A DNA stretch of 60,242 nucleotides, taken from Eubacteriales bacterium. Its GTDB lineage: Bacteria > Bacillota > Clostridia > Oscillospirales > CAG-272. The position numbers and the translations under genes are program-made. Position 1 is the first letter of the stretch. The number at the start of each line of letters is the position of its first letter. Positions 119-60,242 of the stretch are shown here, piece by piece. A model generated the notes under the pieces. That model worked only from the letters and a program-made list of their open reading frames with translations, had not been told where the DNA came from and searched no databases. Location: contig JAZLIW010000076.1 of the NCBI GenBank assembly GCA_045617585.1, positions 1-60,242 of the forward strand. The letters run 5' to 3'.

Positions 119-1780
119 GTGAACAGAAATGATGCTGAAAAGGAAATATCTGTATTTATCAAGCCGGTTTTCGGATTTGCTTTGAAACGCTGTAAATCTT
201 TGCAGGATGCCGAAGATTTGTCGCAGGAGATCATTCTCCGCGCCTATTATGCGCTGACGGTACGGGACGATATTGAGCATATCGACAAGTTTATATGGAC
301 AATTGCACATAATATGCTTGCCAATTATTACCGCAATGCATCGCGTGAATCGCTCGGAATTCCGCTTGACGATATTGCGGAAACGCTTGCGTCTGACGAT
401 GATATCACTGAAGAAACAGACTGCGAGAAAATCGCCGGATTACAAAAAGAAATTGCATATCTGTCAAAATTACAGCGCAGGATTGTGATCGCTTATTATT
501 TTGATAACAAAAAGCAAATCGAAATTGCAGATGAGCTCGATATTCCTCTCGGAACAGTCAAATGGCATTTGTTTGAGGCAAAAAAAGAACTGAAACGAGG
601 AATGAATACCATGATAGAATCAAGTGAACTGAAATTCAGACCAATCAAATTTGATTCTTACGGAATCAACGGAAGCATTGGAACAAAATCCCCCGATGAG
701 TTTTTCCGTTCAATACTGACACAGAATATCTGTTACAGTGTACGCGATACTTATAAAACCGTAAACGAGATTGCCGACGATCTCGGTGTGTCTCCCGTCT
801 TCATCGAAAGCGAAGCAGAACATCTTGAAGAATACGGCTATCTGAAATCCGCAAAGAACAAATATATTTGTAATTTCATTATCGACGAACCCACATCCGA
901 GCTTTTGACGATGCGGGATAGGATGTATAAACAGGCTGCCGATCTTTTGGCAAACAATCTTTTTGACGAACTGACAGAGAGCGGAATTCTTGACGATCCG
1001 GATATTTATTGCGGTTACATGGATCAGCCGATTTCGATGACCGAAACGCCTACAACCCCGAGAGATTATAATTTTCTTTTGTGGGCACTGATCCCTTATC
1101 TTGCGGCTTGTTCGGGAGATGAGCTGCTGGACGAAAAAATCACATTCCGTGAAGTATCGACCATTCGACCGGACGGTGCCGATAATATTTTCAGTGCAGC
1201 AGTCACACATGGCAGCCTGCAATTGCCGCCCGACTATGTTGAAATGAAAAACTGGTGCGGTCCGATGTGGAACGAAAAAGGTGATCTGCGGATATGGCAG
1301 GTCAACAGCGAATGGTGCAGCCGGGGAGCACCTGATATGCAAAATGTCAGTGATATCCGACGCATACTCTCCCTGTTTGCTGATGATGGGGGAAATGCGG
1401 ATGACTGGCTTTGGCTTGCGGAACGAGGGTACGTCAAGACCTGCGGTTCGCTTGACGGATATTTCAAAGCACATTGGGAGATCGTTTGGCTTCAAAGCAA
1501 AGAAATACACAGAAAACTGATTGATATCGGTTATCGGATCAAGAAAAAATACGAGGATGATTTCAATCATATCAAAGCGCCGTATCTCAAAGCATCGCTT
1601 GGGGCAGTACCGGATCATCTCAAAAAAATACGTGAATATGAATTACAGTTTGTTTTTCATTCGGACGGATGGTTTTTGCTCCATTGTATCAAAGCATTGC
1701 TCGATAACGGGAAACTGAAACTGCCGACGGAAGACCAAAGAAAAATCATTTCGACAATGATTTTTCCCAAGATTAATTGA
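119..1780 (+). CDS. ECF sigma-70 factor with ~390-aa C-terminal extension
   Basis: Region 2 (DAEDLSQEI...FIWTIAHN) and region 4 (EIADELDIPLGTVKWHLFEAKKELK); second HTH-like segment TVNEIADDLGVSPVFIE; GTG start with RBS. Confidence 0.85.
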   Translation: MNRNDAEKEISVFIKPVFGFALKRCKSLQDAEDLSQEIILRAYYALTVRDDIEHIDKFIWTIAHNMLANYYRNASRESLGIPLDDIAETLASDDDITEETDCEKIAGLQKEIAYLSKLQRRIVIAYYFDNKKQIEIADELDIPLGTVKWHLFEAKKELKRGMNTMIESSELKFRPIKFDSYGINGSIGTKSPDEFFRSILTQNICYSVRDTYKTVNEIADDLGVSPVFIESEAEHLEEYGYLKSAKNKYICNFIIDEPTSELLTMRDRMYKQAADLLANNLFDELTESGILDDPDIYCGYMDQPISMTETPTTPRDYNFLLWALIPYLAACSGDELLDEKITFREVSTIRPDGADNIFSAAVTHGSLQLPPDYVEMKNWCGPMWNEKGDLRIWQVNSEWCSRGAPDMQNVSDIRRILSLFADDGGNADDWLWLAERGYVKTCGSLDGYFKAHWEIVWLQSKEIHRKLIDIGYRIKKKYEDDFNHIKAPYLKASLGAVPDHLKKIREYELQFVFHSDGWFLLHCIKALLDNGKLKLPTEDQRKIISTMIFPKIN

Positions 1781-30704: not shown

Positions 30705-30705
30705 T

Positions 30706-31675: not shown

Positions 31676-31691
31676 TGTTTCACGTGAAACA
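31676..31691. promoter_or_regulatory. parS site 3
   Basis: Perfect TGTTTCACGTGAAACA. Confidence 0.95.
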
Positions 31692-31734
31692 AAAAAAGAA
31701 GAACGGTCGTGCCGTTCTTCTTGCGTAAGCGTCA

Positions 31735-37088: not shown

Positions 37089-37120
37089 GTTGTATCTTAC
37101 CTTTCGTTGTTCTCATATCA

Positions 37121-37382
37121 TGTGGAAAACGTTTCTTCGCCGTACGGTGGAAAAACCGCATTTTTTCTTTTTTTCCCTTTTTCCGGGAAAAAAATCAGGA
37201 TCACGACGGAATGCCGTGGATTGTTTTCCCTGTGGATTGTCGGATATCTTCTGTACGGCGGGTGCGTCTTCCTTATTTTCCACAAGTGAAAATCGGCTGA
37301 TTTCAGGCAAATCTCACGTTTTCCACAGACTGTTTGTGGATATTGTGGAGAATGGTCTCACTGCCGTCCGAATTGTGGAAAA
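37121..37382. promoter_or_regulatory. DnaA-box cluster in the gyrB-gyrA spacer
   Basis: One-mismatch boxes at 37121, 37276, 37319, 37335, 37344 and 37374; two-mismatch boxes at 37146 and 37231. Confidence 0.8.
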
Positions 37383-37404
37383 CCGGAACGGATGTCGTTA
37401 AATA

Positions 37405-39372
<1,968 letters not shown>

Positions 39373-39386
39373 TTATCGTTTTCGGT

Positions 39387-39656
39387 TCATACCGTTTCGT
39401 CCGCGTCGTTCTCGGTGAACGCGGACGTTCTGCCGAGCAGCCGTTTGGACGAGATCTGCGAAAAAATGATCTTACCGTCTTCCGTGAGAATGAAGGACTT
39501 CGGGATCTCCTCCGCGGCAAATTCCGTGTCTCCTTCTTTTTCGCGTCTTTTGAGATAGCTTCGCGTCACCGCGGAGGCAGACGCGGTATCGAGATCAAAG
39601 ATCCCGATGATCTGTCTGGTCCTGACGTTTCTGTGATTTCCGATGTGAAGATACAT
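39387..39656 (-). CDS. remB: RemB/DUF370 family protein
   Basis: MYLHIG..IIGIFDL..PKSFIL; conserved position between recF and gyrB. Confidence 0.9.
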   Translation of the reverse strand: MYLHIGNHRNVRTRQIIGIFDLDTASASAVTRSYLKRREKEGDTEFAAEEIPKSFILTEDGKIIFSQISSKRLLGRTSAFTENDADETV

Positions 39657-39678
39657 ATTTCCGTTCCTTCCGTGTCTT

Positions 39679-40794: not shown

Positions 40795-40795
40795 A

Positions 40796-41947: not shown

Positions 41948-42297
41948 ATCGGTTGATCCTTTCGGTTTGATTTACTTTGTTCGGCTCTTACGCGCATACA
42001 CGCGCGCGCGCACGCGCGAGAGAGAAAGAGAAGAAGAAAAACGATTCGTCGTAGCAGTAGGGGGTACCGAAAATGTTGAAAAAATCGTTTTTCCGCTTCT
42101 CAGGCTGAAATACGGACTCCAGCCCTGTCTGTTTTTCTCTTGACCGGATGTGGAAAAGGGCTACGGTCCCGTGGAAAAAGTCGGAATGAAATACGAATAC
42201 GTCTGTTTTGCCTGCTTTATCAACAGCTTGTTGACAAAACTGTGGATAACTCGGGCTGAAAACGTGAGATCCTGTGGAAACGCGGACGGGAGAGGGA
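41948..42297. other. Chromosomal replication origin oriC (dnaA-dnaN spacer)
   Basis: DnaA boxes TGTGGATAA (42241, perfect), TTATCAACA (42217), TGTTGACAA (42229), TGTGGAAAA (42149), CGTGGAAAA (42170), TGTGGAAAC (42273), TGTTGAAAA (42074); DnaA-trio-like CTA-CTG-CTA-CGA-CGA on the minus strand at ~42046-42060 after a GC clamp. Confidence 0.9.
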
Positions 42298-43797
42298 TCA
42301 TTCCATGATCTGTTTCTCCAGCTCCTTGACCGTGACTTCCATGGCGGGATTGTTTTTCAGCTCCTCGGTGATCTTCTCAAAGGAGTTCATCATTGTGGTG
42401 TGGTCCCGCTGAAAGACCTTGCCGATCGCCGGGAAAGACATATTGGTGTGCGTGCGGATCAGATAGACCGCGACGTGACGCGGCTGGGAATAGATCGCGT
42501 CTCTCTTTTTACTGAGCAGAAATTCGGGCTTGACGCTGTAATAGCGGGCGACCTTGTCGATGATCCGGTCGGCGGAAAGCTTGACGGTCTGCGTCGGCTC
42601 GATAATATCGGCGATGCACGCGCGGATCATCGGGACGGAGATCGTGGCGCCGGACAGAAATACCTGCGCGGCGATCATCTTTACCGCACCCTCCAGCTGC
42701 CGGACGTTGGAATGGATGCTGTCGGCAAGGAAAGTAAGACATTCCTCGTCCAGCGTCAGACCGACCGTTTTCAGCTTGGATTTCAGGATGGCGACGCGAA
42801 GCTCCGCGTCCGGCGGCTTGATATCGGCGATCAGACCCCATTCAAAGCGCGTCTTCAACCGTTCCTCCAGCGTGTTGATGTCACGGGGCGGCCGGTCGGA
42901 GGTCATGATGATCTGCTTTTTGTTTTCGTAGAGGTCGTTGAAGGTGTGAAAGAATTCTTCCTGCGTTGCTTCACGCCCGGCGATAAACTGGATATCGTCG
43001 ATCAGGAGCACGTCACACATCCGGTACCGCTCCCTGAAATTTTTCGTCGCGTTTTTACTGATCGCGTCGATCATCTGATTGGTAAACTCCTCTCCCTTGA
43101 CGTAGGCGATCTCAAGAGACGGATGCTTTTCCATGATGTAATTGGCGATCGCATAAAGGAGATGCGTTTTGCCGAGCCCTGAGGGACCGTAAATAAAAAG
43201 CGGATTGTAATGCTTTGCCGGTTCCTTCGCGACGGCGTAGCACGCTGCCTGCGCGAATTTATTGGAATTGCCGATGACGAAATTGCCGAAGGTGTAGTCC
43301 GGGGATTTACCGCCGTGCTCCTCCGCGCTCTCCGATTTTTTCTCGGAAATCTGTTCCGCTTCCGTTCCGGGACGGTGATCCGCGGTCGAATAATAGGCGA
43401 TCTCCTTGGTCTCCGAAAAAAAGGGCGTCTTTTCCGGCTCGAGGCGGGAGGGCTCTTCCTTCTGCTTCCGGAGCGCGGAAAGCTCTTCCTCGGACGGAGC
43501 GGAAAAATCGAAGGTCTCGGACCCCAGTTTTTCGGAGGAACGGAAATCGATCCTGACGTCGAGCCCGGTGATCTCTGCAAACGCACGGGTCAGACCCTCC
43601 GAAAAGCGTTTGATGAGAATATCTCTTTTATAGTCGTACGGCGTAACGATCACGGCGAGATCAGACGTCAGATATTTGATCTCCGCGTCGGAGAACCACA
43701 GCTCCATGGCGGCGGAGGAAATTTTTTCGGTCGTTCTGAAATATTCAAGTATTTTCTGAAACAGTTCGTTCAGTTCCTTTTCGGGACAGCCGTTCAC
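42298..43797 (-). CDS. dnaA: Chromosomal replication initiator DnaA
   Basis: YTFGNFV, YNPLFIYGPSGLGKTHL, LLIDDIQF, QEEFFHTFN, RDHTT; likely GTG start at 43797 after GGAAAGGAG. Confidence 0.98.
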   Translation of the reverse strand: MNGCPEKELNELFQKILEYFRTTEKISSAAMELWFSDAEIKYLTSDLAVIVTPYDYKRDILIKRFSEGLTRAFAEITGLDVRIDFRSSEKLGSETFDFSAPSEEELSALRKQKEEPSRLEPEKTPFFSETKEIAYYSTADHRPGTEAEQISEKKSESAEEHGGKSPDYTFGNFVIGNSNKFAQAACYAVAKEPAKHYNPLFIYGPSGLGKTHLLYAIANYIMEKHPSLEIAYVKGEEFTNQMIDAISKNATKNFRERYRMCDVLLIDDIQFIAGREATQEEFFHTFNDLYENKKQIIMTSDRPPRDINTLEERLKTRFEWGLIADIKPPDAELRVAILKSKLKTVGLTLDEECLTFLADSIHSNVRQLEGAVKMIAAQVFLSGATISVPMIRACIADIIEPTQTVKLSADRIIDKVARYYSVKPEFLLSKKRDAIYSQPRHVAVYLIRTHTNMSFPAIGKVFQRDHTTMMNSFEKITEELKNNPAMEVTVKELEKQIME

Positions 43798-43862
43798 AAA
43801 GATGCTCCTTTCCTGATAATTCCGTAAAACACGTTTTTTCAGACAACAATATTCCATCTATT

Positions 43863-43891
43863 ATTATATCACAAAAACAAACCGTTTTCAA
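43863..43891 (-). promoter_or_regulatory. dnaA promoter
   Basis: TTGAAA-17 bp-TATAAT with extended TG. Confidence 0.8.
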
Positions 43892-43962
43892 GAGTTTCCC
43901 GAAAAAATGGTGGAAAACCCGCAAAAATAAAACGGTTTTTTTGAAAAAATGCGGCAGGACAC

Positions 43963-43992
43963 TTGACAAACGGGATTTTTTGTGTATATAAT
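43963..43992 (+). promoter_or_regulatory. rpmH promoter
   Basis: TTGACA-18 bp-TATAAT. Confidence 0.8.
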
Positions 43993-44037
43993 AAGGGGTA
44001 ACGGCATGAAACTGTCTGCAAAGGAGTGAAAAACGAA

Positions 44038-44172
44038 ATGAAGAGAACCTATCAGCCCAAAAAGCGTCAGAGAAATAAGGTCCACGGTTTCCGCAAGAGA
44101 ATGGCTTCCGCTGACGGCAGACGCGTCCTGAAGAGACGCCGCAATAAGGGAAGAGCCAGACTGACTGTCTGA
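44038..44172 (+). CDS. rpmH: 50S ribosomal protein L34 (absent from the ORF track)
   Basis: Manual translation [44 protein letters not shown]; RBS AAAGGAG. Confidence 0.98.
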
Positions 44173-44285
44173 TCCGACGGAATTGAAGAACGGTAATCAG
44201 AAAACGGATGGCAATCGGGCTTTCCGTTTTCTGTTTTCGCGCCTTTCTTCTGCCTCTTCCGAAGGACCGCACCGGAGACCGATCA

Positions 44286-44678
44286 ATGAAAGAAATCGCC
44301 ATCACGGAAAATCATCTCTACGGCAAGGCATACGCAAAGGGGAAAAAAGCGGTGACGGATACCGTCGTCGTTTATCTGCTGCCCGACTATAAAAAGAGGG
44401 AATACGTAAAATATTCTCCCGACGGAAAAACACCGATCAACCGGTTCGGTATCACGGTATCGAAAAAAATCGGCGGAGCGGTGGAAAGAAACCGTGCCAA
44501 GAGAGTGATCAGAGAAGCATACCGGGCAATCCGCAGAAAAAAGCGGATCATGGTCGGTTTTCTGATCGTTGTCGTGGCAAGAGAAGCCGCCGTCCGTGAA
44601 AAGACCGGAAAGGTAACGGCGGATATGGAAAAAGCGTTCGGCAGACTGGGAATGATCCTTCCCGGTGAGAACGCATGA
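44286..44678 (+). CDS. rnpA: Ribonuclease P protein component
   Basis: [25 protein letters not shown]; follows rpmH. Confidence 0.95.
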
Positions 44679-45046
44679 AAAAGATCTTTCTGTATCTGAT
44701 CCGCTTCTACCGCAAGTATCTCTCCCCGCTGAAGGGAAGACCGACCTGTCGGTTTTTTCCCTCCTGTTCCTCCTACGCCGAGCAGGCGATCACGGAATGG
44801 GGCGCGATGCGCGGCGGATGGATGTCGCTGACCCGACTTTTACGGTGTCAGCCCTTCTGCCGCGGCGGATACGACCCGGTCGGCAAAAACCCGGAAAACC
44901 ACCCGCAAATGATGACCCAAAGGGTGCCCGGCTTTCTTTCGAGAAGGAAAGAAAACGGCAGCACTCTCCTTTGTCTTTATTATGCCGGAAGACAGAGGTA
45001 CACGCAGCCCGTACGTTCCCTTTCTGAAAAGCAGGAAAGAAGCTGA
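44675..45046 (+). CDS. yidD: Membrane protein insertion efficiency factor
   Basis: [34 protein letters not shown]. Confidence 0.93.
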
Positions 45047-45112
45047 ACGGAGGGGCTTCCCGAATGTCCGGTTCTGAAAGACAGGAACCGGAAAAAAGGA
45101 AAAAGGAAAAAA

Positions 45113-46447
45113 ATGAAGAAAAAGACAATTCTCTCAGTGATTCTCGCCGTGACGGCGATCGCGCTGCTTCTGACTCTCCCGGTCTTCGCGGAGGTGACTG
45201 CGGATCCCGCAGCGGAAACAGCCGCGGAATCCGCGGCGGAGACGGTGACCGGGACCGCGAAGGACTTCGTGTTCTGGGACATTCTCCGCGTACCAATCAG
45301 CTTTATCATACGCCTTGCGTATAAGCTGGTCCCGAATTATGCGATCGCGCTCCTGATCTTTGCGATCGTGATCAAGATCCTTCTGTTCCCGCTGTCGATC
45401 AAGCAGCAGAAAAACAGCATCAAGCAGGCGTCCCTCCGTCCGAAGGAAGCGGCGATCCGCAAGCGCTACGCGGGGCGGACCGACCAGGTCACGCAGCAGA
45501 AGGTCCAGCAGGAGATCCTCGATCTCTATCAAAAAGAGGGATTCAATCAGTTTGCCGGCTGTCTGCCGCTCCTGATCCAGCTGCCGATCCTGCTTTCCCT
45601 GTATCAGGTGGTCATGAACCCTCTGAAATATCTGTGTTCTCTTTCCGCGAACGCGATCAACAGCATCACCAATCAGATCAATAAGCTCGCCGCTGCGTTC
45701 AACGCCGGTACCTTCCAACCGGTCGGCACCATTTCGGAAGCGATCGCGACCAAACTCGAAAAAGGAACTGCCCTGACCGGGATCGAGCAGATCAACGCGA
45801 TCCGCTGGCTCGGCGAAGAGAACTTCAGTCAGTGGCTCGGGGAAACGAAGCTTCCCTCGTTCAATATCGGTCCGATCGACCTTTCTCCCAGCCCCACGAT
45901 CAAACCTACGAACGGGAACGAATGGCTCCTTCTGCTTCTGCCGGTCGTGACCTTTATCGTCATGTATCTCTCCATGAAGCTGACCAGAAAATGGTCGTAT
46001 CAGCCGATGGAGCTGACCGAGGATCAGAAAAAGTCCAACGTCATCATGGACCTGTTCATGCCCGCGATGTCGACCTTTATCCTGTTCGGCGTTCCTGCCG
46101 TGGTCGGTGTTTACTGGCTCTATCAGAACTTCCTCGGTATTTTCCAGTCCTGGCTCTTAAAGGTGATCTGGCCGCTCCCGACCTTTACGGACGAGGAGCT
46201 CAAGCGGATCGAAAAAGAGATGAACGGGAAGATCAAGCCGGAAAAGACGGAGAAAAAGACGGGTACCAAAGCAAACGTCAGATCTCTGCATCATATTGAC
46301 GACGACGATTATCCCGATCCGCCGAAGAAGAACGAACCCAAAAAGAGAAGCGACCCGAACGACGAATTTGCGGAAGAGGAAAAGCTTCCTCCCGTGTCTC
46401 CCGCCGTGATCCCGCCCGCGAAGCTCAAGGACGACGATAAAAAGTGA
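45113..46447 (+). CDS. yidC: Membrane protein insertase YidC/Oxa1
   Basis: KILLFPLSIKQQK, GCLPLLIQLPIL, GVYW; conserved synteny. Confidence 0.95.
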   Translation: MKKKTILSVILAVTAIALLLTLPVFAEVTADPAAETAAESAAETVTGTAKDFVFWDILRVPISFIIRLAYKLVPNYAIALLIFAIVIKILLFPLSIKQQKNSIKQASLRPKEAAIRKRYAGRTDQVTQQKVQQEILDLYQKEGFNQFAGCLPLLIQLPILLSLYQVVMNPLKYLCSLSANAINSITNQINKLAAAFNAGTFQPVGTISEAIATKLEKGTALTGIEQINAIRWLGEENFSQWLGETKLPSFNIGPIDLSPSPTIKPTNGNEWLLLLLPVVTFIVMYLSMKLTRKWSYQPMELTEDQKKSNVIMDLFMPAMSTFILFGVPAVVGVYWLYQNFLGIFQSWLLKVIWPLPTFTDEELKRIEKEMNGKIKPEKTEKKTGTKANVRSLHHIDDDDYPDPPKKNEPKKRSDPNDEFAEEEKLPPVSPAVIPPAKLKDDDKK

Positions 46448-46513
46448 CCCGGGCATCCCGTTTTTCAGACGAAAAGCAGAAAGGAATCAGTCGCAGAAAG
46501 CGATGAGAACGAT

Positions 46514-47257
46514 ATGAAAAAAGAAGTCATTGTCACCGGCACGTCCGTGGAAGCTGCCGTTTTCGACGGTGCGAGATCGCTCGGTGTCGACAGCAGTTTC
46601 GTAACGTACGAGATCCTCGAAAAACCGAAAAAGGGCTTTCTCGGGTTCGGAGAAACGCTTGCCAAGGTCCGCGTCGAATATACCGAGACACCTGAGCTCG
46701 CCGCGCTCCGCCTGATGAAGAGCATTCTCGAAGATATGGAGATCTCCGCCGACGCTCAGCTGACCCACCCGAACGGGGAACGTCAGATCACGGTCACCGG
46801 TGAGGACGCCGCGATCCTGATCGGGCATCACGGTGAAACGCTGGAATCCCTGCAGTATCTGATCAATCTCGCCGCCTCCCGTTCGGAGGGGAGCGAAAAG
46901 GATCTGCCGTCGTTCGGCAGGATCTCCGTAGATATCGAAAATTACCGCGCCAAGAGAGAAGATACGCTCAGACGTCTTGCACGCCGCATGGCTGACAAGG
47001 TCGTGAAATACGGCAAAAACGTCACGCTGGAGCCTATGAACCCGAACGAGCGCCGCATCATCCATTCCGAGGTCCAGAAGATCAAGGGTGTGACCACCGT
47101 CTCGATTGGTGAGGATTCCCAGCGCCGCGTTGTGATCTACCCCGAGGGCGGTACGGTCGACGCCGCGGAGGCGCAGCAGAGCGCTCCTTCTTCCTCCTCC
47201 GGCCATCGCCGCAGACGCAGAAGACAGGGCGGAGCGGACAAAGGCGAAAAACAGTAA
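46514..47257 (+). CDS. jag: RNA-binding protein Jag/KhpB/EloR
   Basis: KKGFLGFG, KH motif LIGHHGETLESLQYL, R3H motif PMNPNERRIIH. Confidence 0.96.
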   Translation: MKKEVIVTGTSVEAAVFDGARSLGVDSSFVTYEILEKPKKGFLGFGETLAKVRVEYTETPELAALRLMKSILEDMEISADAQLTHPNGERQITVTGEDAAILIGHHGETLESLQYLINLAASRSEGSEKDLPSFGRISVDIENYRAKREDTLRRLARRMADKVVKYGKNVTLEPMNPNERRIIHSEVQKIKGVTTVSIGEDSQRRVVIYPEGGTVDAAEAQQSAPSSSSGHRRRRRRQGGADKGEKQ

Positions 47258-50722: not shown

Positions 50723-53182
50723 TCACTGCTTTTTACCCGTTTCCGCGGGGGAAACTGCGGTGTTTTTCTTTTTCCGGAGGAGAAATACGGCGGCGATCGC
50801 GGCGATTGCCGCTGCGGATGCGGCAATGACTGCGGGGAGGAGCCATCCGTTATCCGCCGCGGTCACGGTGACGGGATAGGCGGCGGAACGCGTGACGCCG
50901 GTCAGCGCGTCGGTCACGGTCACACGGATGAGATAGGTCCCCTCCGCGCAGCCGCGGAAATCGACGGGAGAGACGGTATATTCGTCGGGTCCGACGGTCA
51001 CGGTCCTGCCGGAAGCACACAAACGGGTCACCATGACCCCGTTCAGATCGGGCGTTTCTCCGGCGCGGTATTCCGTTTTCGCGGCGGAGGCGTCGATCAG
51101 GAGCGCCTCGATCGTATCGGAGACGGTGAAAACGGCGTTCCCGCCTTCCGTTCCGCGGTAGAGGAAGGAAACGGTCTGCTCCCCGGGTCTTTTCGGGGAA
51201 TAACCGACGAAAGTGATCTCCGCAGGGTCGACCTCGCGTTCTCCGCCCGCCTCGAAGACCGCTTTTCCGGCGATCCCGGTCAGGTCCGGCATCTCACCGA
51301 ACGGGAAGACTGTTTCTTTCGGGAGCGCGGTGACGGTAAAGGAGAGGAGACGGTCGGTCACGGTCAGGAGGAAGGACGCGGTCTTCGTGCCGCCGTACTC
51401 CGACGTGACGGAAACGGTCACGGGGTAGGTCCCTTCCTTCTGCGGATCGAAGGCGCCGAGGTCGAGGCTGTATTCCCCTTCCTTCAGCGGCGCGGTACCG
51501 GAATAAGAGAGGACGCGGGAGACGGAAAGACCGTCGAGATCGGGCGTTTCACCGAGGAAGAGCGCGGTGCGGACGCGGGAGGCGTCGATCTCCACGCCGA
51601 CCAGCGTATCCATGATATTGACGTGGAAGACGGCGCTGCCTTCCTTTCCGTCAAGGGAGGCGCGGTAGACCACGCGGTAATAGCCGTGCTCGGTCGGCGT
51701 GAAGAGCAGGGGCTCTCCGTCCGCTCCGCCGAGCGGGGTCCCGATCGGAAGATCGACGAAGCCGGCGACGTCGACCCATTCGGTCCCCGTATTGTGCTGG
51801 ATCGTATAGATCACGGCGTCATGAAGATCGGTCACGGTGCCGTCCCCGTGCTCCGCGCGCGCGGTCACGTCGGGAAGGCGGCAGGGAAGACGGTACGGGA
51901 CGTTCATCTCGGTCCCGTCCACGCTGACCGTGACCTTCGTCCGGTCGATCATCTGTCCGGCGGGAACGACCGTCAGTGTGATCGGCGCCGTTTTGGTCAC
52001 CGTCGTCCCGTCGTAATCGCAGCGGACCGTGACCGTCGCGGTGAAGGGTCCCTCGGTCCCGGGCGCGGCGGCGGGAGAGACCGTCCATTCCTTTTCCGAA
52101 AGGAGCCGTTCCCCGGTATAGGAGAAGGTACCGTAGACCGCGACGCCGGGCAGGCTCTGTCCGGGCAGGTCGAGCCGCTCCGACGGATGGACCTCGACCG
52201 TATGCCCGTCGGCCGCGACGCGGATGCCGGTCAGCGTATCCATGACGTTCAGATAATATTCCGCCTCCGCCGTATTTTTCCCGTCGGTCACGCGGTAGAC
52301 GATCCGGTAAAAGCCGTGGCGGTCGATCTGCAGGTTCCGGTCGGCGGCGGTGTTATTCCGGTCGGTATAGCCGGGGAGCGGCGTCCAGTTCGTCACGTCC
52401 CCGTGATAGACGGTGAAAGTCACCTTCGCCGCGGAGGAAGCGCCGCGCAGGGTAACGTCGGGAAGAGAAAAGGGATGACCGAAGGCGACGTTTGACTCCG
52501 CGGACGCGGAATCAACGGAGACCGTCAGCGGATCGCCGGGATCTTCTTCCCCGCCGTCTTCCGAGACGCGGCGGATCGAAAGGTCGTCGACGTAGAATTT
52601 TCCTGGCGTCACGACCGTGCCGAAGGCGATCGAGATGCGGAAGCCGGTTGTATTCCGCTGCCCGCCCGCGCCGTGTGTCGGGGCAAGGGTGAAGCGCGCG
52701 GTGACCTGCTCCCATTCGCCCTCCGTTCCGGTCAGATTGTTCGCGTAGGCAAAGGGCTGCCCGTCCGCGGTTGTGACCGGGACTTCGTCGTCCTGCGCGA
52801 AGATCCCGTCGTGTGCGTAGAAGAGCTTGATATATTCCCAACCGCGGAAGCCGTCCGTCGCTTTGAACCAGAGGCTGATCTCGTATTCCTCCCCGGTGCG
52901 GAACGTTCCGCCGGAGAGGGGGATATCGCATAGGATCGCCTGCATGGTCCCGGAGGAGCAGTCGAAGAGAAGGGAGCGGCTTCCGCTGCGGACGCCCTCG
53001 TCTCCCTCCGACGCGAGATACCATTCCGCGCCGAAATCAAAGGCAAAACCGTAACCGCGCGGGTTCGCCTCAAAGGACCCGCCGGGGAAGAGCTCCTTCG
53101 CCGCGCGCGAGGGCAGGGGGAAGGAGAGGGGAAGCAGAAGGAGCAGACAGAGAAGCAGCAGACCGAAAGAATATTTTTTCAT
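50723..53182 (-). CDS. Secreted, C-terminally anchored protein with CBM4/9-like domain and bacterial Ig-like repeats
   Basis: Signal peptide, ELFPGGSFE...FYVDDLSIR beta-sandwich, repeated KTxYxxGExPDLxG units, C-terminal TM plus RKKK. Confidence 0.8.
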   Translation of the reverse strand: MKKYSFGLLLLCLLLLLPLSFPLPSRAAKELFPGGSFEANPRGYGFAFDFGAEWYLASEGDEGVRSGSRSLLFDCSSGTMQAILCDIPLSGGTFRTGEEYEISLWFKATDGFRGWEYIKLFYAHDGIFAQDDEVPVTTADGQPFAYANNLTGTEGEWEQVTARFTLAPTHGAGGQRNTTGFRISIAFGTVVTPGKFYVDDLSIRRVSEDGGEEDPGDPLTVSVDSASAESNVAFGHPFSLPDVTLRGASSAAKVTFTVYHGDVTNWTPLPGYTDRNNTAADRNLQIDRHGFYRIVYRVTDGKNTAEAEYYLNVMDTLTGIRVAADGHTVEVHPSERLDLPGQSLPGVAVYGTFSYTGERLLSEKEWTVSPAAAPGTEGPFTATVTVRCDYDGTTVTKTAPITLTVVPAGQMIDRTKVTVSVDGTEMNVPYRLPCRLPDVTARAEHGDGTVTDLHDAVIYTIQHNTGTEWVDVAGFVDLPIGTPLGGADGEPLLFTPTEHGYYRVVYRASLDGKEGSAVFHVNIMDTLVGVEIDASRVRTALFLGETPDLDGLSVSRVLSYSGTAPLKEGEYSLDLGAFDPQKEGTYPVTVSVTSEYGGTKTASFLLTVTDRLLSFTVTALPKETVFPFGEMPDLTGIAGKAVFEAGGEREVDPAEITFVGYSPKRPGEQTVSFLYRGTEGGNAVFTVSDTIEALLIDASAAKTEYRAGETPDLNGVMVTRLCASGRTVTVGPDEYTVSPVDFRGCAEGTYLIRVTVTDALTGVTRSAAYPVTVTAADNGWLLPAVIAASAAAIAAIAAVFLLRKKKNTAVSPAETGKKQ

Positions 53183-53228: not shown

Positions 53229-55565
53229 TCAGCGGATCTGCCATTCGATGATCCCGCAGGGAGCGTCGGCGCGGAGCACGAGCCGGACCGCCTCCGTCGT
53301 GATCGGATCGAAGGTAAGCGTGCTGAACCCATCCCGGACCGTCTTTTCCGACGTGCCCGCCGTTTTCCACGTTCCGTCCGAAAGATACTGGAGCTCGAAG
53401 GAGGAGGGGAGGGAAACGCCGTTCCCCGCCGCGAAATAGACGCCGGTCTCGGTCAGAGTCTTCTCCCCGTCGAAGTCGTACCGGAGATAGTGCCCGTCCT
53501 TCCCGCCCGCGGGAACGAAGAAGAAGGGAGAGGCGAAGCGGAAGAGGTCGTTTGCGTAGGGGGAAAGCGAGGAGGAATCTTTTGCCGTGATCCCGTCGTT
53601 CACTGCCTCAAGGTAATGGGAAAGGCCGGAGGCGTCGTACCAGATATTCCCGGAAAGACGGTCGGCGCGGGTGACCGCGGCACCGAAGTCGCAGGAGACC
53701 GCGGCACGCATCGCCGGGTCCTCCTCCTTCGCCTCCGGGGGCAGCTCCCCGACCGAACGGAAATAGACGGTATAGGTCTCGTTCACGATATCCGCGTAGC
53801 GGCGGAGGGTGACCGTTTCCTCCCCGTCTTTCAGAAGGAAGCTTCCGTCGGCATCCGGGAGGAGGGAGGAGAGGGAAAAGAGCGCGCCGTAGGAGAGATA
53901 ATTCTTTTTTTCGTACCGTTTGCCGACCGCGGCGAGGAGATAGGGGCCGTATTTGATCGCGACGGTGTCGGGATCGTCCGGCGTTTCCTCGTAATAGCCG
54001 CCGTAGGGCAGGAAGAATTCGAGGGTGTCCCCGTCGTGGTAGATCCGGTCGAAGACGAGATAGCCGTTTTCCTCTTTGCCGGTGACCGTCGTTCCGTTGA
54101 GGACGGCGACCGCGGCGGAGGCGTAATAGGGAACGCGGAGCATCAGCTCCATCCTGCCCTCACCGGTAAAGGTAAAGACGTTTCTCTGTCCGTCTCCGGT
54201 CAGGGTCACTTCCCGGTCCCCGACGCGGAGCACCGCGTTTTCATAGACGTTGACGATCAGCCCGCGGTCGGTGCGGAAGCCGATCATCGAGCCGAGCCGG
54301 GAGAAGGTCTCCATCCCGGTCCCGGTGCAGCACCAGAAGGAATCCTCCGGGGAGTGGAAGAGCTTTTTCGCGTCGGTGCAGAGCCACTGATAATAGGTTT
54401 TGCAGCCGTCCCCGTCGATCGAACCGGCAAGACCGTTGAGCAGCGCCCGTTCCATGTAGTCGGCGTATTTCACGTCCCCCGTCACGGCGAACAGATACGC
54501 AGAGAGCTTGCTCATGTTGTAAATATTGCAGGTCTCATCCGGGTTGTACCAGAACTGGTCGGAGGTGTGCTCCGGATAACCGAACGCCTCTCCCTCGGAG
54601 TTGCCGCCCGTGGCGTAGGTCCTGCCGTTCACCACGATATCCCAGAAGAACTCGGCGGCTTCGAGCAGAGCGGGATCTCCGGTGATCGTGTAGCCGCGCG
54701 CGTAGCCGACCGCCTTCGGGATCTGCGTGTTCGCGTGGATGCCGGTCAGGTTGTCCTTTCCGCCGGACCACGCGTCAAGATAGAGTGCCTCGTTGAAGAA
54801 TTCCGCGACCGCGAGATAGTCCTCCTCCCCGGTCACGTCGTAAAGATTGTAGGCGACCTCGTTCATGCCGCCGTATTCGACGCGGAGGACCGTTGCCCGC
54901 TGGCTCTCCGAAAGGGGAGCGGTGAAATTACGGATCCAGTCCATCATCCCGCAGGCGATCGAGAGCGCTTCCCCGTTGTCCGTATAGACGTAGGCGTCGT
55001 AAAGACCGGCAAGGATCTTGTGGACGGTATAGAACAGGACGCTGTTCGAGCCGTCGCCGCGGAGCAGTGCGGAAAAATCCTCCGCGGGCCGCGCCATCAG
55101 GTAACCGTCCTCCGCCTGACATCTGCCGAGCTCCGTTACGATCTCACCGACCCGTTCGAGGCACCATGCTTCCCCGGTCGAGGCGCAGAGCATCGACAGA
55201 GCGGAAAGGTAATGACCGAGGGTGTGCCCCGCGACGGAGCCGCCGGTGTTCCCGGCTTCCCAGCCGCCGTAAGGCATCGTCCCGGCGGGAACGTCGATCC
55301 CCGCGGTGACGTAGAAAAAGTATAAAAGGGTCGCCGGATCCAGGCTTTTCAGATATTCCGCGTTCGCTTGCTGTTTTTCGTACAGCATTCCGGCGTTCAG
55401 GATCACGTCGCCCGCGCGGAGCGGGGAAATGACCCGTTCTCCGGGATAAGCGGGCAGAGGTTCTTCCTCCCCGTCCGGCTGCCGCACGGCAGGCGTGCAG
55501 GCGGGCAGGAAAAGGGTGAAAACGGAGAGCAGCGCAAGAAGCAGAGAAAGGATCTTACGGTACAT
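53229..55565 (-). CDS. Lipoprotein beta-L-arabinofuranosidase-like (GH127/GH146) with C-terminal discoidin-like domain
   Basis: Lipobox LPAC; YGGWE, GHYLSA, EYGGMNE, HANTQIPK, ETCNIYNM, YMERAL, FWCCTGTG. Confidence 0.9.
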   Translation of the reverse strand: MYRKILSLLLALLSVFTLFLPACTPAVRQPDGEEEPLPAYPGERVISPLRAGDVILNAGMLYEKQQANAEYLKSLDPATLLYFFYVTAGIDVPAGTMPYGGWEAGNTGGSVAGHTLGHYLSALSMLCASTGEAWCLERVGEIVTELGRCQAEDGYLMARPAEDFSALLRGDGSNSVLFYTVHKILAGLYDAYVYTDNGEALSIACGMMDWIRNFTAPLSESQRATVLRVEYGGMNEVAYNLYDVTGEEDYLAVAEFFNEALYLDAWSGGKDNLTGIHANTQIPKAVGYARGYTITGDPALLEAAEFFWDIVVNGRTYATGGNSEGEAFGYPEHTSDQFWYNPDETCNIYNMSKLSAYLFAVTGDVKYADYMERALLNGLAGSIDGDGCKTYYQWLCTDAKKLFHSPEDSFWCCTGTGMETFSRLGSMIGFRTDRGLIVNVYENAVLRVGDREVTLTGDGQRNVFTFTGEGRMELMLRVPYYASAAVAVLNGTTVTGKEENGYLVFDRIYHDGDTLEFFLPYGGYYEETPDDPDTVAIKYGPYLLAAVGKRYEKKNYLSYGALFSLSSLLPDADGSFLLKDGEETVTLRRYADIVNETYTVYFRSVGELPPEAKEEDPAMRAAVSCDFGAAVTRADRLSGNIWYDASGLSHYLEAVNDGITAKDSSSLSPYANDLFRFASPFFFVPAGGKDGHYLRYDFDGEKTLTETGVYFAAGNGVSLPSSFELQYLSDGTWKTAGTSEKTVRDGFSTLTFDPITTEAVRLVLRADAPCGIIEWQIR

Positions 55566-55631
55566 GAACGGCACCTCCCGGTCTGTTTTCATTCCGTTCT
55601 CCGCGTGAAACGGAGCGGATCGTCCGTCTTC

Positions 55632-55911: not shown

Positions 55912-56700
55912 TCATTCGTCGTCCTCGAAGAAGACGTCGTATTTCGCGGCGCGTTCGATGTCGTTCAGGCGGCCGTCACCGTCATAATCGAAGGCGCTGT
56001 CCATGGAGGAAAACATTTTGTCTTCCGGGCAGCCGGGATACCATCCGCCATCGGCGGGGCCATCGGCGGAGGTGCCGGAGGTATTCCCGAAGAAGCGGCT
56101 CCGTCCGCTTCTGGCGCGGTGTTTTACGGGAGTTTCCGGCTGCACCGGATCGGGATCCATGATCGCATAGAGCTCCAATACGATCACGAAGGGCAGCGCG
56201 AGGATCAGGGGCAGCCACAGACCTCCGTCACCGTCCCAGCCGAACAGGAAGAGAATGACTGCGGCGATCAGACCGCCGATCAGCTCCAGCTTCGGCAGAA
56301 ATATGAGCATGGTGATCAGCGCGGCGAACAGGTCGAAGCTGCGCCCCGGCTTTTTATCATGGTTCGGCTCCCAACGGACGGGATCCGCGCCGTAACGCGG
56401 CGGGGTTCCGTTTTTCGCGGGCTCTGACGTTCCGACAGGAGAGGCGGTCCGCTCGCTCAGGCTATCGCAGCGGATCCGGCAGATCACGGTTTTCGGATCT
56501 TCCGGCGGGCAGGGGGCACCTTCCGCACCGAAAAATCCGGCGGAGACGACTTTGGCAAGCGTGATCGTCCCGTTCTCCGTCCGGATAAAGACCTCGTCCC
56601 CGACCCGAACGGACAGGTCAGGGCACAGATACGGGTCCGGCAGCGTGATCCCGTTTAACCGTACGGTAACGTAATACGAAAGCGATCCGCCGGTTTCCAT
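55912..56700 (-). CDS. Hypothetical membrane protein
   Basis: RBS AGGAGGGA before ATG 56700; N-terminal YLCPDLSVRVGDEV beta module, 2-3 TMs, C-terminal DYDGDGRL. Confidence 0.65.
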   Translation of the reverse strand: METGGSLSYYVTVRLNGITLPDPYLCPDLSVRVGDEVFIRTENGTITLAKVVSAGFFGAEGAPCPPEDPKTVICRIRCDSLSERTASPVGTSEPAKNGTPPRYGADPVRWEPNHDKKPGRSFDLFAALITMLIFLPKLELIGGLIAAVILFLFGWDGDGGLWLPLILALPFVIVLELYAIMDPDPVQPETPVKHRARSGRSRFFGNTSGTSADGPADGGWYPGCPEDKMFSSMDSAFDYDGDGRLNDIERAAKYDVFFEDDE

Positions 56701-56813
56701 CGATCTGTCCCTCCTTCGGTCCGTTCGGCAATCCTCTTTTTTTCTTCCGATCACAGGATACCATATCCCATGCGTCGTTTTCGGGTCATGGATCGGTTTT
56801 TTGCGCTGCCGCG

Positions 56814-57568
56814 TCAGATTTCTTCGGGGAAGCCCTCCCACTCGTCAAAGCCGCAGGAGCGCAGGGCTTTCAGATAGTCGGCGTACGCCGTTCCCCGGAT
56901 GTCGGCGATATAGTGGCTTTTGCCGGAAACGGCGGTGCCGCCGTCCGGCTCGTCGAACGCGAACAGGACCGGTTGCTGCGTCCTTTTGATATAGTGATAG
57001 GCGAGCTTTTTCGTGTATCCGTAGTCCACGACGGCGTCGGAGACCTGTGGCCAGCCGTCGATGAGGCTCCACCAGATAATGCCGTTTCTCCTGCCGCGTG
57101 AGACGCGGAACCGCTCGATGAAGTATTTTTTCGCCTCCGCCTGCGAGATCTGGCTCATCCGCGCAAAATCCTCGAGCGTATCCGGCACGCAGCCGAATAG
57201 CGTCCGGACCTGATCCCGCATCAGGCAGATCCGGTAGGCGTAGGGATCGCTCATATCCGTCCGCATACACGAGACGTGCGCCAGCCAGTCCGCGTTCGGA
57301 ACGCCGCGCCCGTCGAAGATCGGATACAGAGCCCCGGGCGCGAGGAAGGTTTTCAGGGAGGCGGGAGAGGGACAGCCGTGGTAGCCGGTCTCAGATGCGA
57401 AGTGGCAGACCGAGCTTTTATAATAATTCCCCTTGAAATAGCCTCACGGGTGAAGATATTTTCATTGGGGTCGCGCTTCCATCCCGCCCAGTTCACGGCG
57501 CAGTCGCACTCGTTGTCCCCCGCCCACAGGACGAGAGAGGGATGATTGCGGTACGCCTTGACGACTTT
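56814..57568 (-). pseudogene. GH2 beta-mannosidase-like gene remnant
   Basis: Fragments in different frames: VKAYRNHPSLVLWAGDNECD, HFASETGYHGCPS, SQISQAEAKKYFIERFR, GIIWWSLIDGWPQVSDAVVDY; N-terminal domains absent. Confidence 0.85.
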
Positions 57569-57597
57569 ATCATACTATACGCGGGCGGAAAAGTCAA
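57569..57597 (-). promoter_or_regulatory. Sigma-A promoter abutting the GH2 remnant
   Basis: TTGACT-17 bp-TATGAT. Confidence 0.55.
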
Positions 57598-57846
57598 GAC
57601 GGATGCCGCCGTCCTCCGTCAAACCCGCGGAAGACCGGCGCTTCGGGCAGGATCACAAAAAAAATAAAAAAATTCGGTCCCGACGTAATATTTCATCCCC
57701 GCGCGAGGTATTGAGTGTGAAGGGACAAAAAAAGCGCCGGGCACTCCCGGACATGATCCCGCGTCCCGGGGCACCTGAAAAGACGGTGTGCCCGGCAGAT
57801 ACGTTACGATACGGAAAGAACGAAAAAAGTATAGGAGAAACACAAA

Positions 57847-58527
57847 ATGAAAAAATTAACTGCCGTTATTGTTCTGCTCGCACTGCTCATTCCGTTCGCC
57901 CTCGGCGGATGCACGGAAACGAAAGGGAATACCGATCTTCCTGTCGACGAATCCACCGCGGAAAACGAAACCGTAAACGAAACCGAAGCGGAAAGCGGGA
58001 AGCTTTCTTCGCCCGGCCTTTTCTCCTCCGGCACACTCGGTTCCGCCGTGAATTCACTGAACGGTGCGGGCGTGCTCCTCTACGTGAACGGCATGGTTAC
58101 GGGGGAGGTCCGTTCCGCGGAGAACCGTCTTTCCGGAGAACTGAAAAACGCCATTGAGGCGCTCACCTTCGAAGAAGGGATCGAGGTCCCCTACGACGAG
58201 GAAAGCGGGTATCCCATGGGGAGAAACAAGTTCCTTCCCGCGTCCTTTACACACGCGCTCGATAATACCTCCGTTCTCTTCCGCAAGTTCCTGTCGACCG
58301 GCGAACTGCTTGAGATCACTGCCGACTTCTACCGCATGGGAAGCAACGGTACGCTTGAAAAATACTATTCCGTCCGGTACGAGGATGCGGTCGTGATCAG
58401 CGTCGGATCTGCGTCCGACGGCCATGGGTCGGACAGTTTCACCCAGGCGGAAACGGTCAGATTCACTTACCAGCGCGCGACCTACACGTATACCGACAGC
58501 GGCTTTTCCTATACGGTTACCCGCTGA
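57847..58527 (+). CDS. Lipoprotein with Hcp/TssD-like (T6SS tube) domain
   Basis: RBS AGGAGA; MKK plus hydrophobic stretch and lipobox LGGC; acidic linker; IEALTF..VPYDEESGYPMG..PASFTHALDNTS..TGELL..FYR..G..EKYYSVRYEDAVV..ETVRFTYQRATY follows the Hcp pattern. Confidence 0.75.
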   Translation: MKKLTAVIVLLALLIPFALGGCTETKGNTDLPVDESTAENETVNETEAESGKLSSPGLFSSGTLGSAVNSLNGAGVLLYVNGMVTGEVRSAENRLSGELKNAIEALTFEEGIEVPYDEESGYPMGRNKFLPASFTHALDNTSVLFRKFLSTGELLEITADFYRMGSNGTLEKYYSVRYEDAVVISVGSASDGHGSDSFTQAETVRFTYQRATYTYTDSGFSYTVTR

Positions 58528-58555
58528 CGCCGAAGAAACCATTCTCGTTTGAAGA

Positions 58556-58598
58556 AAAACCCGGCACGGATCCCCGAAGGATCTCCGTGCCGGGTTTT
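58556..58598. terminator. Bidirectional terminator
   Basis: AAAACCCGGCACGGA / TCCGTGCCGGGTTTT 15-bp arms. Confidence 0.8.
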
Positions 58599-58617
58599 CG
58601 CGCGTTCATTTCGCGGG

Positions 58618-60242
58618 TCAGTCCTCTTTGCTGAGGGAAGTGCTGACGGGAACGGTGACGGTGCGGTCGTAGCAGGAGAACATCCCGTCCACGTTTTCCG
58701 GCACCGCCTTCCGGGTCAGGAGGCTGACCGCGGGGACGACGACGAGACCTGCCAGCATGGCGAGCATTCCCGCGTTGATGGCGGAATTGAAGAAATAGGC
58801 AAGGGGGGCGTTTTCAAAGCGGATGCCCAGTACGGAGGTCAGGACGAACTCCGTCATGGTAATGCCGAGACCGGTGATGAAGGAAGCCCACACCGCGGGA
58901 CGGGTGGTCTTTTTCCAGAACAGACCGTACAGGAAGGGCGCGAGGAAGCAGCCCGCCAGCGTGCCCCAGGAAATGCCCATCAGGTCGGAGATATACAGCC
59001 GCCCGGCCATCTCCTTATCGTACGCCGTCAGGATGGCGATGGCAGCCGCCACGGCGATGGAAACGGCGATCAGCACGCGCATCAGAAGCATATCCCGGGA
59101 TTCACGTGCCGCCTTCTTTTTGCGCACCGCCGCCACGAGGTCCAACGCGACGGTGGAGGCGGAGGTCATGACGAGGGAGGCAAGCGTGGACATGGAGGCG
59201 GAAAGCACCAGGATCAGCACGAGCCCCATGAGCCAGTCGCCGCGCACGCCGAGACGGCTCGTGACCGCGTTCAGCATCGTGGGGACGATGTTGTCGAAGG
59301 ATTGGGGAACGCCCGCTTCCGTCAGGGCGATCTCTCCTGCAAAGAGTCTGCCGAAGCCGCCGAGGAAGTAACAGCCGCCCGCGACGATCAGCGCGAACAC
59401 GGTGGAAATGACCGTTCCCTTGTGGACGGCGCCCTCGTCCTTGATGGCGTAGAATTTCCCGACCATCTGGGGCAGTCCCCAGGTCCCGAGAGAGGTGAGG
59501 ATCACCACGCCGAGGAGCTGCAGGGGCTGAGGGCCGAGGAAGGAGGCGTAGGCACCCGAGAAAACGGTGCCCTGCGCGGTGGTCACGGAGTCGGCGGAGA
59601 GCCGCGCGATCGCTTCTCCGATGCCGCCCTGATCCGCCAGCACCGCGCCGATGACGGCGGCGATGCCCGCCAGCATGATCATTCCCTGAATAAAGTTATT
59701 GACGGCGGCACCCATGTAGCCGCCGATGATGACGTACACACCGGTCAGCACGGCCATGATGATGACCCACCACGCGTAACTGACGCCCGGGAACGCCGAC
59801 GTGAACAGCTGGGACAGTCCGTTGAACAGCGAGGCGGTGTAGGGGATCAGGAAGATGAACACGATCACGGCGGCGGTGAGGCGCAGTGCGCGGGATTCAT
59901 ACCGCAGACCGAAGTAGTCGGGCATGGTGCGGCTGCCGAGGTGCTGGGTCATGACGCGGGTGCGGCGTCCCAGCACGACCCACGCGAGCAGCGAGCCGAT
60001 GAAGGCGTTGCCGAGTCCGATCCACGTGGACGCCAGACCGAAGTTCCAGCCGAAGCGTCCCGCGTATCCGATGAAGATGACCGCGGAGAAGTAAGACGTG
60101 CCGAAGGAGAACGCGGTCAGCCACGGGCCGACGGCGCGTCCGCCGAGGACGAAGCCGTCCACGCCGCGGCTTGAGCGGCGGGACATGATGCCGACGAACA
60201 GCATCGCGGCAAAGAAGATGACGATCAGGAGAATCTTGACTA
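58618..60242 (-). CDS. Sodium:solute symporter (PutP/PanF-like); 5' end beyond the window
   Basis: FVLGGRAVGPW, TMPDYFGLRY, WGLPQ, SASMSTL; many TMs; frame stays open to the window edge. Confidence 0.92.
   Translation of the reverse strand, partial: VKILLIVIFFAAMLFVGIMSRRSSRGVDGFVLGGRAVGPWLTAFSFGTSYFSAVIFIGYAGRFGWNFGLASTWIGLGNAFIGSLLAWVVLGRRTRVMTQHLGSRTMPDYFGLRYESRALRLTAAVIVFIFLIPYTASLFNGLSQLFTSAFPGVSYAWWVIIMAVLTGVYVIIGGYMGAAVNNFIQGMIMLAGIAAVIGAVLADQGGIGEAIARLSADSVTTAQGTVFSGAYASFLGPQPLQLLGVVILTSLGTWGLPQMVGKFYAIKDEGAVHKGTVISTVFALIVAGGCYFLGGFGRLFAGEIALTEAGVPQSFDNIVPTMLNAVTSRLGVRGDWLMGLVLILVLSASMSTLASLVMTSASTVALDLVAAVRKKKAARESRDMLLMRVLIAVSIAVAAAIAILTAYDKEMAGRLYISDLMGISWGTLAGCFLAPFLYGLFWKKTTRPAVWASFITGLGITMTEFVLTSVLGIRFENAPLAYFFNSAINAGMLAMLAGLVVVPAVSLLTRKAVPENVDGMFSCYDRTVTVPVSTSLSKED

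Follow-up and report, generated by a model that had tools for sequence, protein, structure and literature searches.

A putative lipoprotein-anchored Hcp, encoded apart from detectable type VI secretion genes, in a monoderm-type Clostridial host

The window analyzed here is the entire 60,242-bp contig JAZLIW010000076.1 of a Eubacteriales bacterium (assembly GCA_045617585.1). Near one end it carries a gene for a protein with the Hcp/TssD β-barrel seen in type VI secretion systems (T6SS). The open reading frame (ORF), at 57847..58527 on the + strand, encodes 226 residues and a stop codon, and the protein will be referred to as P0001. A Shine-Dalgarno sequence, AGGAG at 57833..57837 (+), is located 9 nt 5′ of the ATG at position 57847. 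P0001 is divided into three regions, all encoded on the + strand. Residues 1–22 (57847..57912) form a putative lipoprotein (type II) signal peptide, recognized from the sequence, an AlphaFold2 helix and a conserved cysteine. Residues 23–75 (57913..58071) form an acidic linker that is predicted to be disordered, based on its charge count and model confidence, and residues 76–226 (58072..58524) form the Hcp domain, identified with Pfam, TIGR03344, AlphaFold2 and Foldseek. A GC-rich hairpin and U-run, located by fold energy and assigned to neither strand, lie at 58558..58598, between the Hcp gene and a convergent symporter gene. The sequence-only reading of this DNA had described a 226-residue ORF with its own ribosome-binding site and terminator, flanked by oppositely oriented genes and encoding a type II signal peptide (LGGC), an acidic linker and an Hcp1/TssD-like domain. 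Each of these elements was recovered, as described below.

P0001 is a genuine member of the Hcp/TssD family by sequence and fold. The Pfam family T6SS_HCP (PF05638) matches residues 84–215 over profile positions 7–129 of 129, with an E value of 2e-13 and a score of 51.2 bits (cut-off 23.5), and NCBIfam TIGR03344 (TssD) matches residues 90–221 with 69.3 bits (cut-off 58.9). T6SS_HCP is the only Pfam family matched, and there is no domain beyond the linker. The best matches in a phmmer search of the Protein Data Bank (PDB) are Pseudomonas aeruginosa Hcp3 (3he1, 2.7e-14) and Vibrio cholerae Hcp (5mxn, 1e-10). The AlphaFold2 model of P0001, calculated with an alignment of 138 rows, has a mean predicted local distance difference test score (pLDDT) of 83.6, mostly above 90 across residues 76–226. 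The top match to this model in the PDB, found with Foldseek, is the Hcp structure 6a2v, with an E value of 1.2e-14, a template-modeling (TM) score of 0.86 and an rms deviation of 2.1 Å over 159 columns. The best PDB matches are Hcp chains, two of them constructs fused to Hcp1. The motifs on which the family assignment had first been made are all located in the translation: IEALTF (residues 103–108), PYDEESGYPMG (115–125), PASFTHALD (131–139), TGE (151–153), FYR (161–163), EKYYSVRYEDA (171–181) and ETVRFTY (202–208). The D-x-x-SG-x-P-x-G motif (residues 117–125) and the FYR, YY and FTY strands are likewise shared with T6SS Hcp proteins.

The tail tubes of phages and of extracellular contractile injection systems (eCIS), of the T4 gp19 and TP901-1 major tail protein types, have the same ancient tube fold, but their similarity to P0001 is weak. 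The best match in BFVD has an E value of 1.6e-7, and the TM scores for phage tail-tube models are 0.3–0.6, with rms deviations mostly of 5–10 Å (Foldseek). As the Hcp match is strong and the viral tail-tube match is weak, P0001 is of the Hcp type and not of the phage-tube type. Identification as a phage or eCIS tail-tube protein was rejected, the protein having no PHROG match and no match to PF06841 and the neighboring genes being chromosomal housekeeping genes, with no phage genes nearby. In the ESM Atlas, the clusters nearest to P0001 have scores of 0.82–0.87, below the similarity mark of 0.9, and are Hcp-domain clusters labeled Myxococcota, Promethearchaeota-rich and Bacteroidota; they are leads only. 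One of them, with a score of 0.82 and also only a lead, contains Hcp-domain proteins of about 198 residues, of which 69% are from Archaea, most commonly Promethearchaeota.

The Hcp of the T6SS is a cytoplasmic protein of diderm hosts; it has no signal peptide and is exported by contraction of the sheath. In comparison, the N-terminus of P0001 consists of MKK, a 16-residue hydrophobic stretch (LTAVIVLLALLIPFA), and the lipobox LGGC, which ends in Cys22. AlphaFold2 places a helix at residues 3–18. The positive n-region, the h-region and the Cys-terminated lipobox of a bacterial lipoprotein are thus all present in P0001, and its own genome encodes both Lgt (PF01790, 250.4 bits) and the signal peptidase II LspA (PF01252, 144.2 bits). 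The linker has nine Asp/Glu and two Lys/Arg over residues 23–72, and its pLDDT, in 10-residue blocks over residues 21–70, falls from 62 to 44. This signal and tether of about 50 residues set P0001 apart from canonical Hcp, which begins 2–6 residues before strand β1.

The same architecture is found in the nearest relatives of P0001. Cys22 is invariant in all seven clade members in one alignment (A1), and an eighth member, P0121, also has a Cys-terminated lipobox. All eight (P0001–P0007 and P0121) have an MKK-type n-region followed by a hydrophobic segment, with a Cys around position 21–26, and there are 57–83 residues ahead of β1 across the clade. A lipobox signal is present as well in four of four multi-domain relatives (P0008, P0010, P0124 and the L072 ORF). 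A survey of homologs for the lipobox–Hcp architecture had been proposed in the sequence-only reading, and its outcome agrees with that reading. The pattern and its conservation indicate that the signal of P0001 is probably of the lipoprotein type.

The eight-member clade was defined with FastTree on the Hcp-domain columns of 138 proteins of up to 300 residues, taken from the query and its 150 best matches (13 longer proteins were left out). It has 100% local support, and the N-terminus is hydrophobic in all eight rows. Besides the single-domain members, lipobox proteins with two Hcp domains (P0124 and the 365-residue L072 ORF) and with three (P0008, P0010 and the 549-residue L073 ORF) were found. 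An exhaustive profile search over 1.84 billion representatives gave 467 matches at E ≤1e-3 and 18 at ≤1e-10, including one close ortholog. This protein, P0002, is full-length, 63% identical to P0001 and of the same architecture, with the lipobox LCGC. A word-based homolog search returned just the query itself and P0002. A locus search with another alignment (A2) confirmed none of 29 pattern matches in genome contigs and none of 77 in metagenome contigs.

Members or fragments of the clade were located in five related Clostridia-type metagenome-assembled genomes (MAGs). The product of locus L004, in a Eubacteriales bacterium MAG (genome G687), is 100% identical to P0006. In the family of G687, two of 150 other genomes carry clade forms, one with two domains (G787) and one with three (G721). 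Within the window's own order, one genome of 300 others (G098) has a fragment at a contig end that is nearly identical to the C-terminus of P0005. No Hcp domain was found in the 399 scored genomes at the class level, one further genome being unscorable. The lipobox Hcp clade is therefore rare by these counts. The GyrB protein of the window is 71–72% identical to those of G687 and G787, as compared to 74% for a same-family genome and 61% for a same-class genome, and the clade hosts are thus fairly close kin, even though their Hcp proteins are only 31–38% identical to P0001.

Eight residues are conserved in the clade: Glu119, Phe134, His136, Ala149, Ile157, Ala159, Tyr178 and Tyr213. At position 136 (58252–58254), His is present in seven of the eight clade rows, while 95% of the remaining 130 relatives in the alignment have Lys there. 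The clade-specific residues mark the divergence of the clade, also from the T6SS Hcp proteins, and are candidate functional sites.

Four clade loci are complete, those of the window, L004, L072 and L073. The Hcp gene has as its neighbors GH127 and SSF symporter genes in the window, and, as recognized by eye, a 538-residue PPK2-like and a 289-residue EamA-like ORF in L004, asparaginase-like and RibF-like ORFs in L072, and ABC-F-like and histidine kinase-like ORFs in L073. Each clade Hcp gene stands alone amid unrelated housekeeping genes.

The genome from which the window comes has a size of 2.93 Mb in 208 contigs, and is 81.67% complete with 0.49% estimated contamination; the negative results for this genome given below apply to that assembled portion. 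Spo0A is present (158 bits) and Omp85 and LpxC were not found, on the basis of which the host is taken to be of the monoderm type, and it looks like a monoderm, spore-former-like Firmicute. The genome contains one Hcp domain. TssC/VipB (PF05943), Phage_sheath_1 (PF04984), Phage_GPD/VgrG (PF05954), gp25 (PF04965), the gp19-type tube (PF06841) and PAAR (PF05488) were not found, and a Pfam scan of the 30 large ORFs of the window found no T6SS, baseplate or phage-tail family, six of the ORFs having no match at all. Spo0A is present in all three of the other hosts G687, G721 and G787, and neither Omp85 nor TssC was found in any of them. These results agree with the earlier proposal of a monoderm Firmicute host with no tssB/C, vgrG, PAAR, baseplate or phage tail gene in the window, and extend the search to T6SS and eCIS genes in the whole assembled genome. 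The counter-case named there, of lipobox-less homologs inside a complete injection system, fails, since the nearest relatives keep the lipobox and stand alone. P0001 differs in this way from a T6SS component: the protein is not a signal-free Hcp, no T6SS core was found in the incomplete genome, the host is not of the diderm type, and the gene is alone.

The 18% of the genome that is unassembled could nevertheless hold the genes for an injection system, contractile or non-contractile, with P0001 as its tube and an N-terminus that is not a working signal. The incompleteness of the genome is in keeping with this, as is the frequent placement of Hcp genes in diderms apart from the main T6SS locus, according to the accessible part of a survey of secretion systems (PMC4793230). 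We regard this explanation as very improbable. The six marker families were not found in the assembled genome, nor TssC in three further hosts, and Omp85 is likewise not found in the hosts. A lipobox kept in all eight clade rows and in the four multi-domain relatives is a misfit with a tube assembled in the cytoplasm. Moreover, monoderm genomes were without diderm-type secretion loci in that same survey, as far as its accessible part goes (PMC4793230).

The genes on both sides of the Hcp gene are on the opposite strand, as the sequence-only reading had it, and the Hcp gene is therefore monocistronic. Upstream are two divergent ORFs at 56814..57266 (−) and 55912..56841 (−), neither with a Pfam match, and downstream is the sodium:solute symporter gene at 58618..60204 (−). 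For the 150-residue ORF at 56814–57266 the sole match is to the β-galactosidase-like section of a composite model in PADLOC (E 1.7e-7), and the ORF is perhaps what is left of a glycosidase gene. The 309-residue ORF at 55912–56841 has hydrophobic stretches and no family match. The hairpin (about 58558–58594) is followed by UUUU and has a folding energy of −32.2 kcal/mol (z −4.46), with none of 200 shuffled sequences folding as well. It is likely a two-way terminator, serving both the Hcp and the symporter genes, though a consensus terminator scan did not list it. A consensus scan upstream of the Hcp gene gave no convincing promoter on the + strand, and an Rfam search of 56800–58700 gave no match at E values up to 1.

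The contig carries gyrA, gyrB, mnmG, parB, serS, yidC, jag and GAPDH genes, and is therefore core chromosome and no stray element. The origin-proximal genes among them (parB, serS, mnmG, gyrA, gyrB, yidC and jag) lie at 28855–47257, which puts the Hcp gene at a distance of about 11–20 kb from a set of genes typical of the oriC region in Firmicutes. Predicted surface proteins in the window are a 957-residue BspA-type leucine-rich repeat protein at 15018–17891 (+), an 819-residue Big_3 protein at 50723–53182 (−) and a GH127 protein at 53229–55592 (−). The last of these is β-L-arabinofuranosidase-like and has an F5/8 type C domain, and its N-terminus resembles a lipoprotein signal (LFLPAC). At the other end of the window, positions 1–2000 have a GC content of 0.44 as compared to 0.51–0.65 in the rest, and the match of a 553-residue ORF (119..1780) to sigma-70 regions 2 and 4 is confined to its first 160 residues or so.

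The Hcp gene could also be an artefact, produced by contamination or by chimeric assembly close to the end of the contig, or it could be the decaying, functionless remnant of a horizontally acquired Hcp. About 1.7 kb separate the gene from the contig end, no independent sequencing run spans the locus, and the GC content at third codon positions (0.683) is the lowest among the 11 window genes compared, by a small margin from which no conclusion about transfer is drawn. Such an origin is barely credible, however, given an intact frame with ribosome-binding site and terminator, a full-length ortholog of the same architecture (P0002), and clade members in four other related MAGs, with Spo0A seen in G687, G721 and G787 (G098 was outside the Spo0A test). 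In addition, the GC content of the gene, 0.561, is inside the range of the window, and the contamination estimate is low.

Self-association of the barrel was examined with a four-copy model of residues 72–226. Its interaction prediction score from aligned errors (ipSAE) is 0.56, as compared to 0.00 for the best control; of 30 proteins solved as homo-pairs, 20 attain this mark, as does one of 23 solved as single chains. Contact agreement between runs is at least 82%, and the pLDDT of the partner is at least 81. Strand 105–114 is paired with strand 184–190 of the neighboring copy, and one of the copies uses both of its faces, as in the arc of a ring. The predicted interface is thus Hcp-like and head-to-tail, and shows likeness to that of solved rings. 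The occurrence of one-, two- and three-domain forms inside the Clostridial clade fits a ring of six domains, which is a weak hint in the same direction.

A wider set of relatives also has export signals. With a rule of mean Kyte-Doolittle hydropathy of at least 2.0 over 11 residues ahead of β1, which is crude and differs from SignalP, 90 of the 138 nearest single-domain relatives have a hydrophobic N-terminal signal. The 48 signal-less rows comprise 10 that are cut at the N-terminus, 33 with the canonical 2–6 residues, and 5 others. On the tree the label is clustered but not confined to a single clade, with 24 changes as compared to a mean of 39.8 over shuffles (none of 500 was as low). These proportions are to be read with the source of the rows in mind, as the list of 150 best matches is possibly biased to signal-bearing proteins, the query having a signal itself. 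A locus search with alignment A4 gave 62 loci, 61 of them from diderm or other phyla. Most of the 53 that were examined, the partial loci L055–L059, L061–L063 and L065 being left out, encode a canonical Hcp starting MALNAYLKLKGQK with no signal. Sec-signal examples are found in Nannocystis (L007 and L051) and an Armatimonadetes MAG (L052). Among the left-out partial loci, L065, from an uncultured MAG of the mostly monoderm phylum Actinomycetota, has a partial Hcp-like match to query residues 59–111 (38% identity, E 5e-5).

Longer relatives fuse Hcp domains to a type IX secretion system (T9SS) sorting domain and FlgD_ig (P0105), collagen repeats (P0133), CarboxypepD_reg domains (P0018) or a lipoprotein signal (P0072), with three, four (P0074) or seven (P0015) Hcp stretches per chain. 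The exported Hcp proteins of diderms (those of Nannocystis, the Armatimonadetes MAG and the T9SS-sorted forms) resemble P0001 in having the Hcp domain in a protein with an export signal. They differ in that they have other anchors or none, would end in the periplasm or the outer membrane, and fall outside the eight-row lipoprotein clade. In the Nannocystis sp. MAG, the Sec-signal Hcp gene (L007, 6319–10492) is directly 3′ of, and on the same strand as, the gene for a 1129-residue protein with N-acetylmuramoyl-L-alanine amidase and Golvesin_C domains. This amidase protein is a possible lead to a client or partner of exported Hcp in diderms.

The accessible part of one Hcp survey describes PF05638 genes from Gram-negatives only, with genes bearing a PEP-CTERM signal removed (PMC8262886). 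Those Hcp–PEP-CTERM genes would represent further exported Hcp-domain proteins of diderms, similar in this respect to P0001. No paper on a lipoprotein or Sec-exported Hcp in monoderms was found in our search of the literature, and no study of the exported diderm Hcp-domain proteins; the supplementary tables of the Hcp survey might list such genes. The best description of P0001 is that of a lipoprotein-anchored Hcp which, in monoderm Clostridia, is independent of the T6SS, and which belongs with a larger group of exported Hcp-domain proteins.

Alternatively, the barrel of P0001 may be a structural or adhesive surface module, a β-sandwich-like block for wall organization, adhesion or polysaccharide handling, with no client in its lumen and perhaps monomeric. 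The distant relatives P0105, P0133 and P0018 do combine Hcp with surface modules, Hcp genes with PEP-CTERM sorting signals had to be removed in the survey, as its accessible part has it (PMC8262886), and the neighbors in the window include the GH127 lipoprotein and the Big_3 surface protein. This alternative appears improbable, as the model gives a confident Hcp-type lateral interface, nothing is common to the neighborhoods of the four complete loci, and P0001 has no extra domain beyond its linker.

Based on these observations, P0001 is likely a Sec/Lgt-exported, membrane-tethered Hcp ring that operates without a contractile machine, as a static platform for binding or holding; the tube fold would thus have been put to a new use at the cell surface. 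This agrees with the main inference of the sequence-only reading, that of a repurposed, Sec-exported and membrane-tethered Hcp. The first three steps follow established lipoprotein biogenesis. P0001 would be exported by Sec, lipidated at Cys22 by Lgt, and cleaved by LspA at the signal peptide. The Hcp barrel would then be held at the external surface of the cytoplasmic membrane, the only membrane of the cell, by an acidic, disordered tether of about 50 residues. Outside the cell, the barrels would join head-to-tail by β-strand pairing, as in the Hcp of the T6SS, to give a ring, and the two- and three-domain relatives in the clade would form the same ring from fewer chains. Such a ring cannot be a fired tube, because the host is without an outer membrane, sheath, spike and baseplate, as far as these were detected.

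The function is the least certain part of this proposal. The Hcp ring of the T6SS is a carrier of effectors, and a platform role would re-use its ability to bind clients: the ring would be a static, tethered holder for a secreted client encoded elsewhere in the genome. Among the guesses at function in the sequence-only reading (a surface ring or filament, a decoy, or a scaffold), ring-type self-association is the one that has any support, from the model.

Several points weigh against this proposal. The export and lipidation of P0001 are predicted from its sequence. The four-copy result may simply echo solved Hcp hexamers that the model had learned, and the calibration used two copies while a four-copy model was scored. 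The two-domain L072 ORF folded poorly (pLDDT 66.4 and predicted TM score 0.52, with a 4-row alignment), and Foldseek matched it to single Hcp domains only. The idea that domain numbers are divisors of six was rejected beyond the clade, P0074 having four Hcp stretches and P0015 seven. Some of the canonical Hcp contacts may be lost through the Lys to His change at position 136 and the other clade-specific residues. No neighbor is conserved across the four complete loci, which therefore give no pointer to a client or function. A machine may be encoded in the missing part of the host genome. Finally, the one sequencing run compared (X1, share 0.05) gave seven short, diverged pieces, none across the Hcp gene, and thus adds no independent support from assembly or expression.

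Surface defense by mimicry is another way in which a tethered ring could act. The ring would cap or trap phage tail tubes, tape-measure proteins or Hcp-borne T6SS effectors, in a manner resembling superinfection exclusion of the Ltp type. The predicted exposure of P0001 on the outside of a monoderm membrane is functionally analogous to that described for Ltp-type lipoproteins in the accessible part of one paper (PMC3952083). Its fold is common to phage tail tubes, and the patchy, rare distribution and fast divergence (31–38% identity for Hcp vs. 71–72% for GyrB) are typical of conflict genes. On the other hand, P0001 has no match among the PADLOC defense models or in PHROG, none of the four complete loci is in a prophage or beside recognizable defense genes, there is no relation to Ltp in sequence or fold, and the match to phage tubes is far weaker than that to Hcp. 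We consider mimicry unlikely for these reasons, and the binding or holding platform remains the preferred explanation for P0001.

A broader conjecture, which we hold to be doubtful, is that Sec-exported Hcp rings represent an unrecognized class of extracytoplasmic machines, which in monoderm Clostridia would include a lipid-tethered tube mimic between membrane and wall that docks onto and blocks phage tail tubes or captures Hcp-borne T6SS cargo. If such a tube mimic exists, the fold of the attacking tubes would itself have been made into a defense of a new kind, at the level of the envelope.

Hcp is regarded as a hallmark of type VI secretion, a machine found in bacteria with two membranes, and is used as its marker in genome annotation. 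Here the same fold is found behind a conserved lipoprotein-type signal, in single-membrane hosts with no detected contractile machine. An 'Hcp' annotation in a monoderm genome should not be counted as evidence for a T6SS. If the ring does form outside the cell, the protein would provide a stand-alone system in which to learn what an Hcp ring does without a sheath, whether in holding clients, in building surface structures or in blocking tubes.

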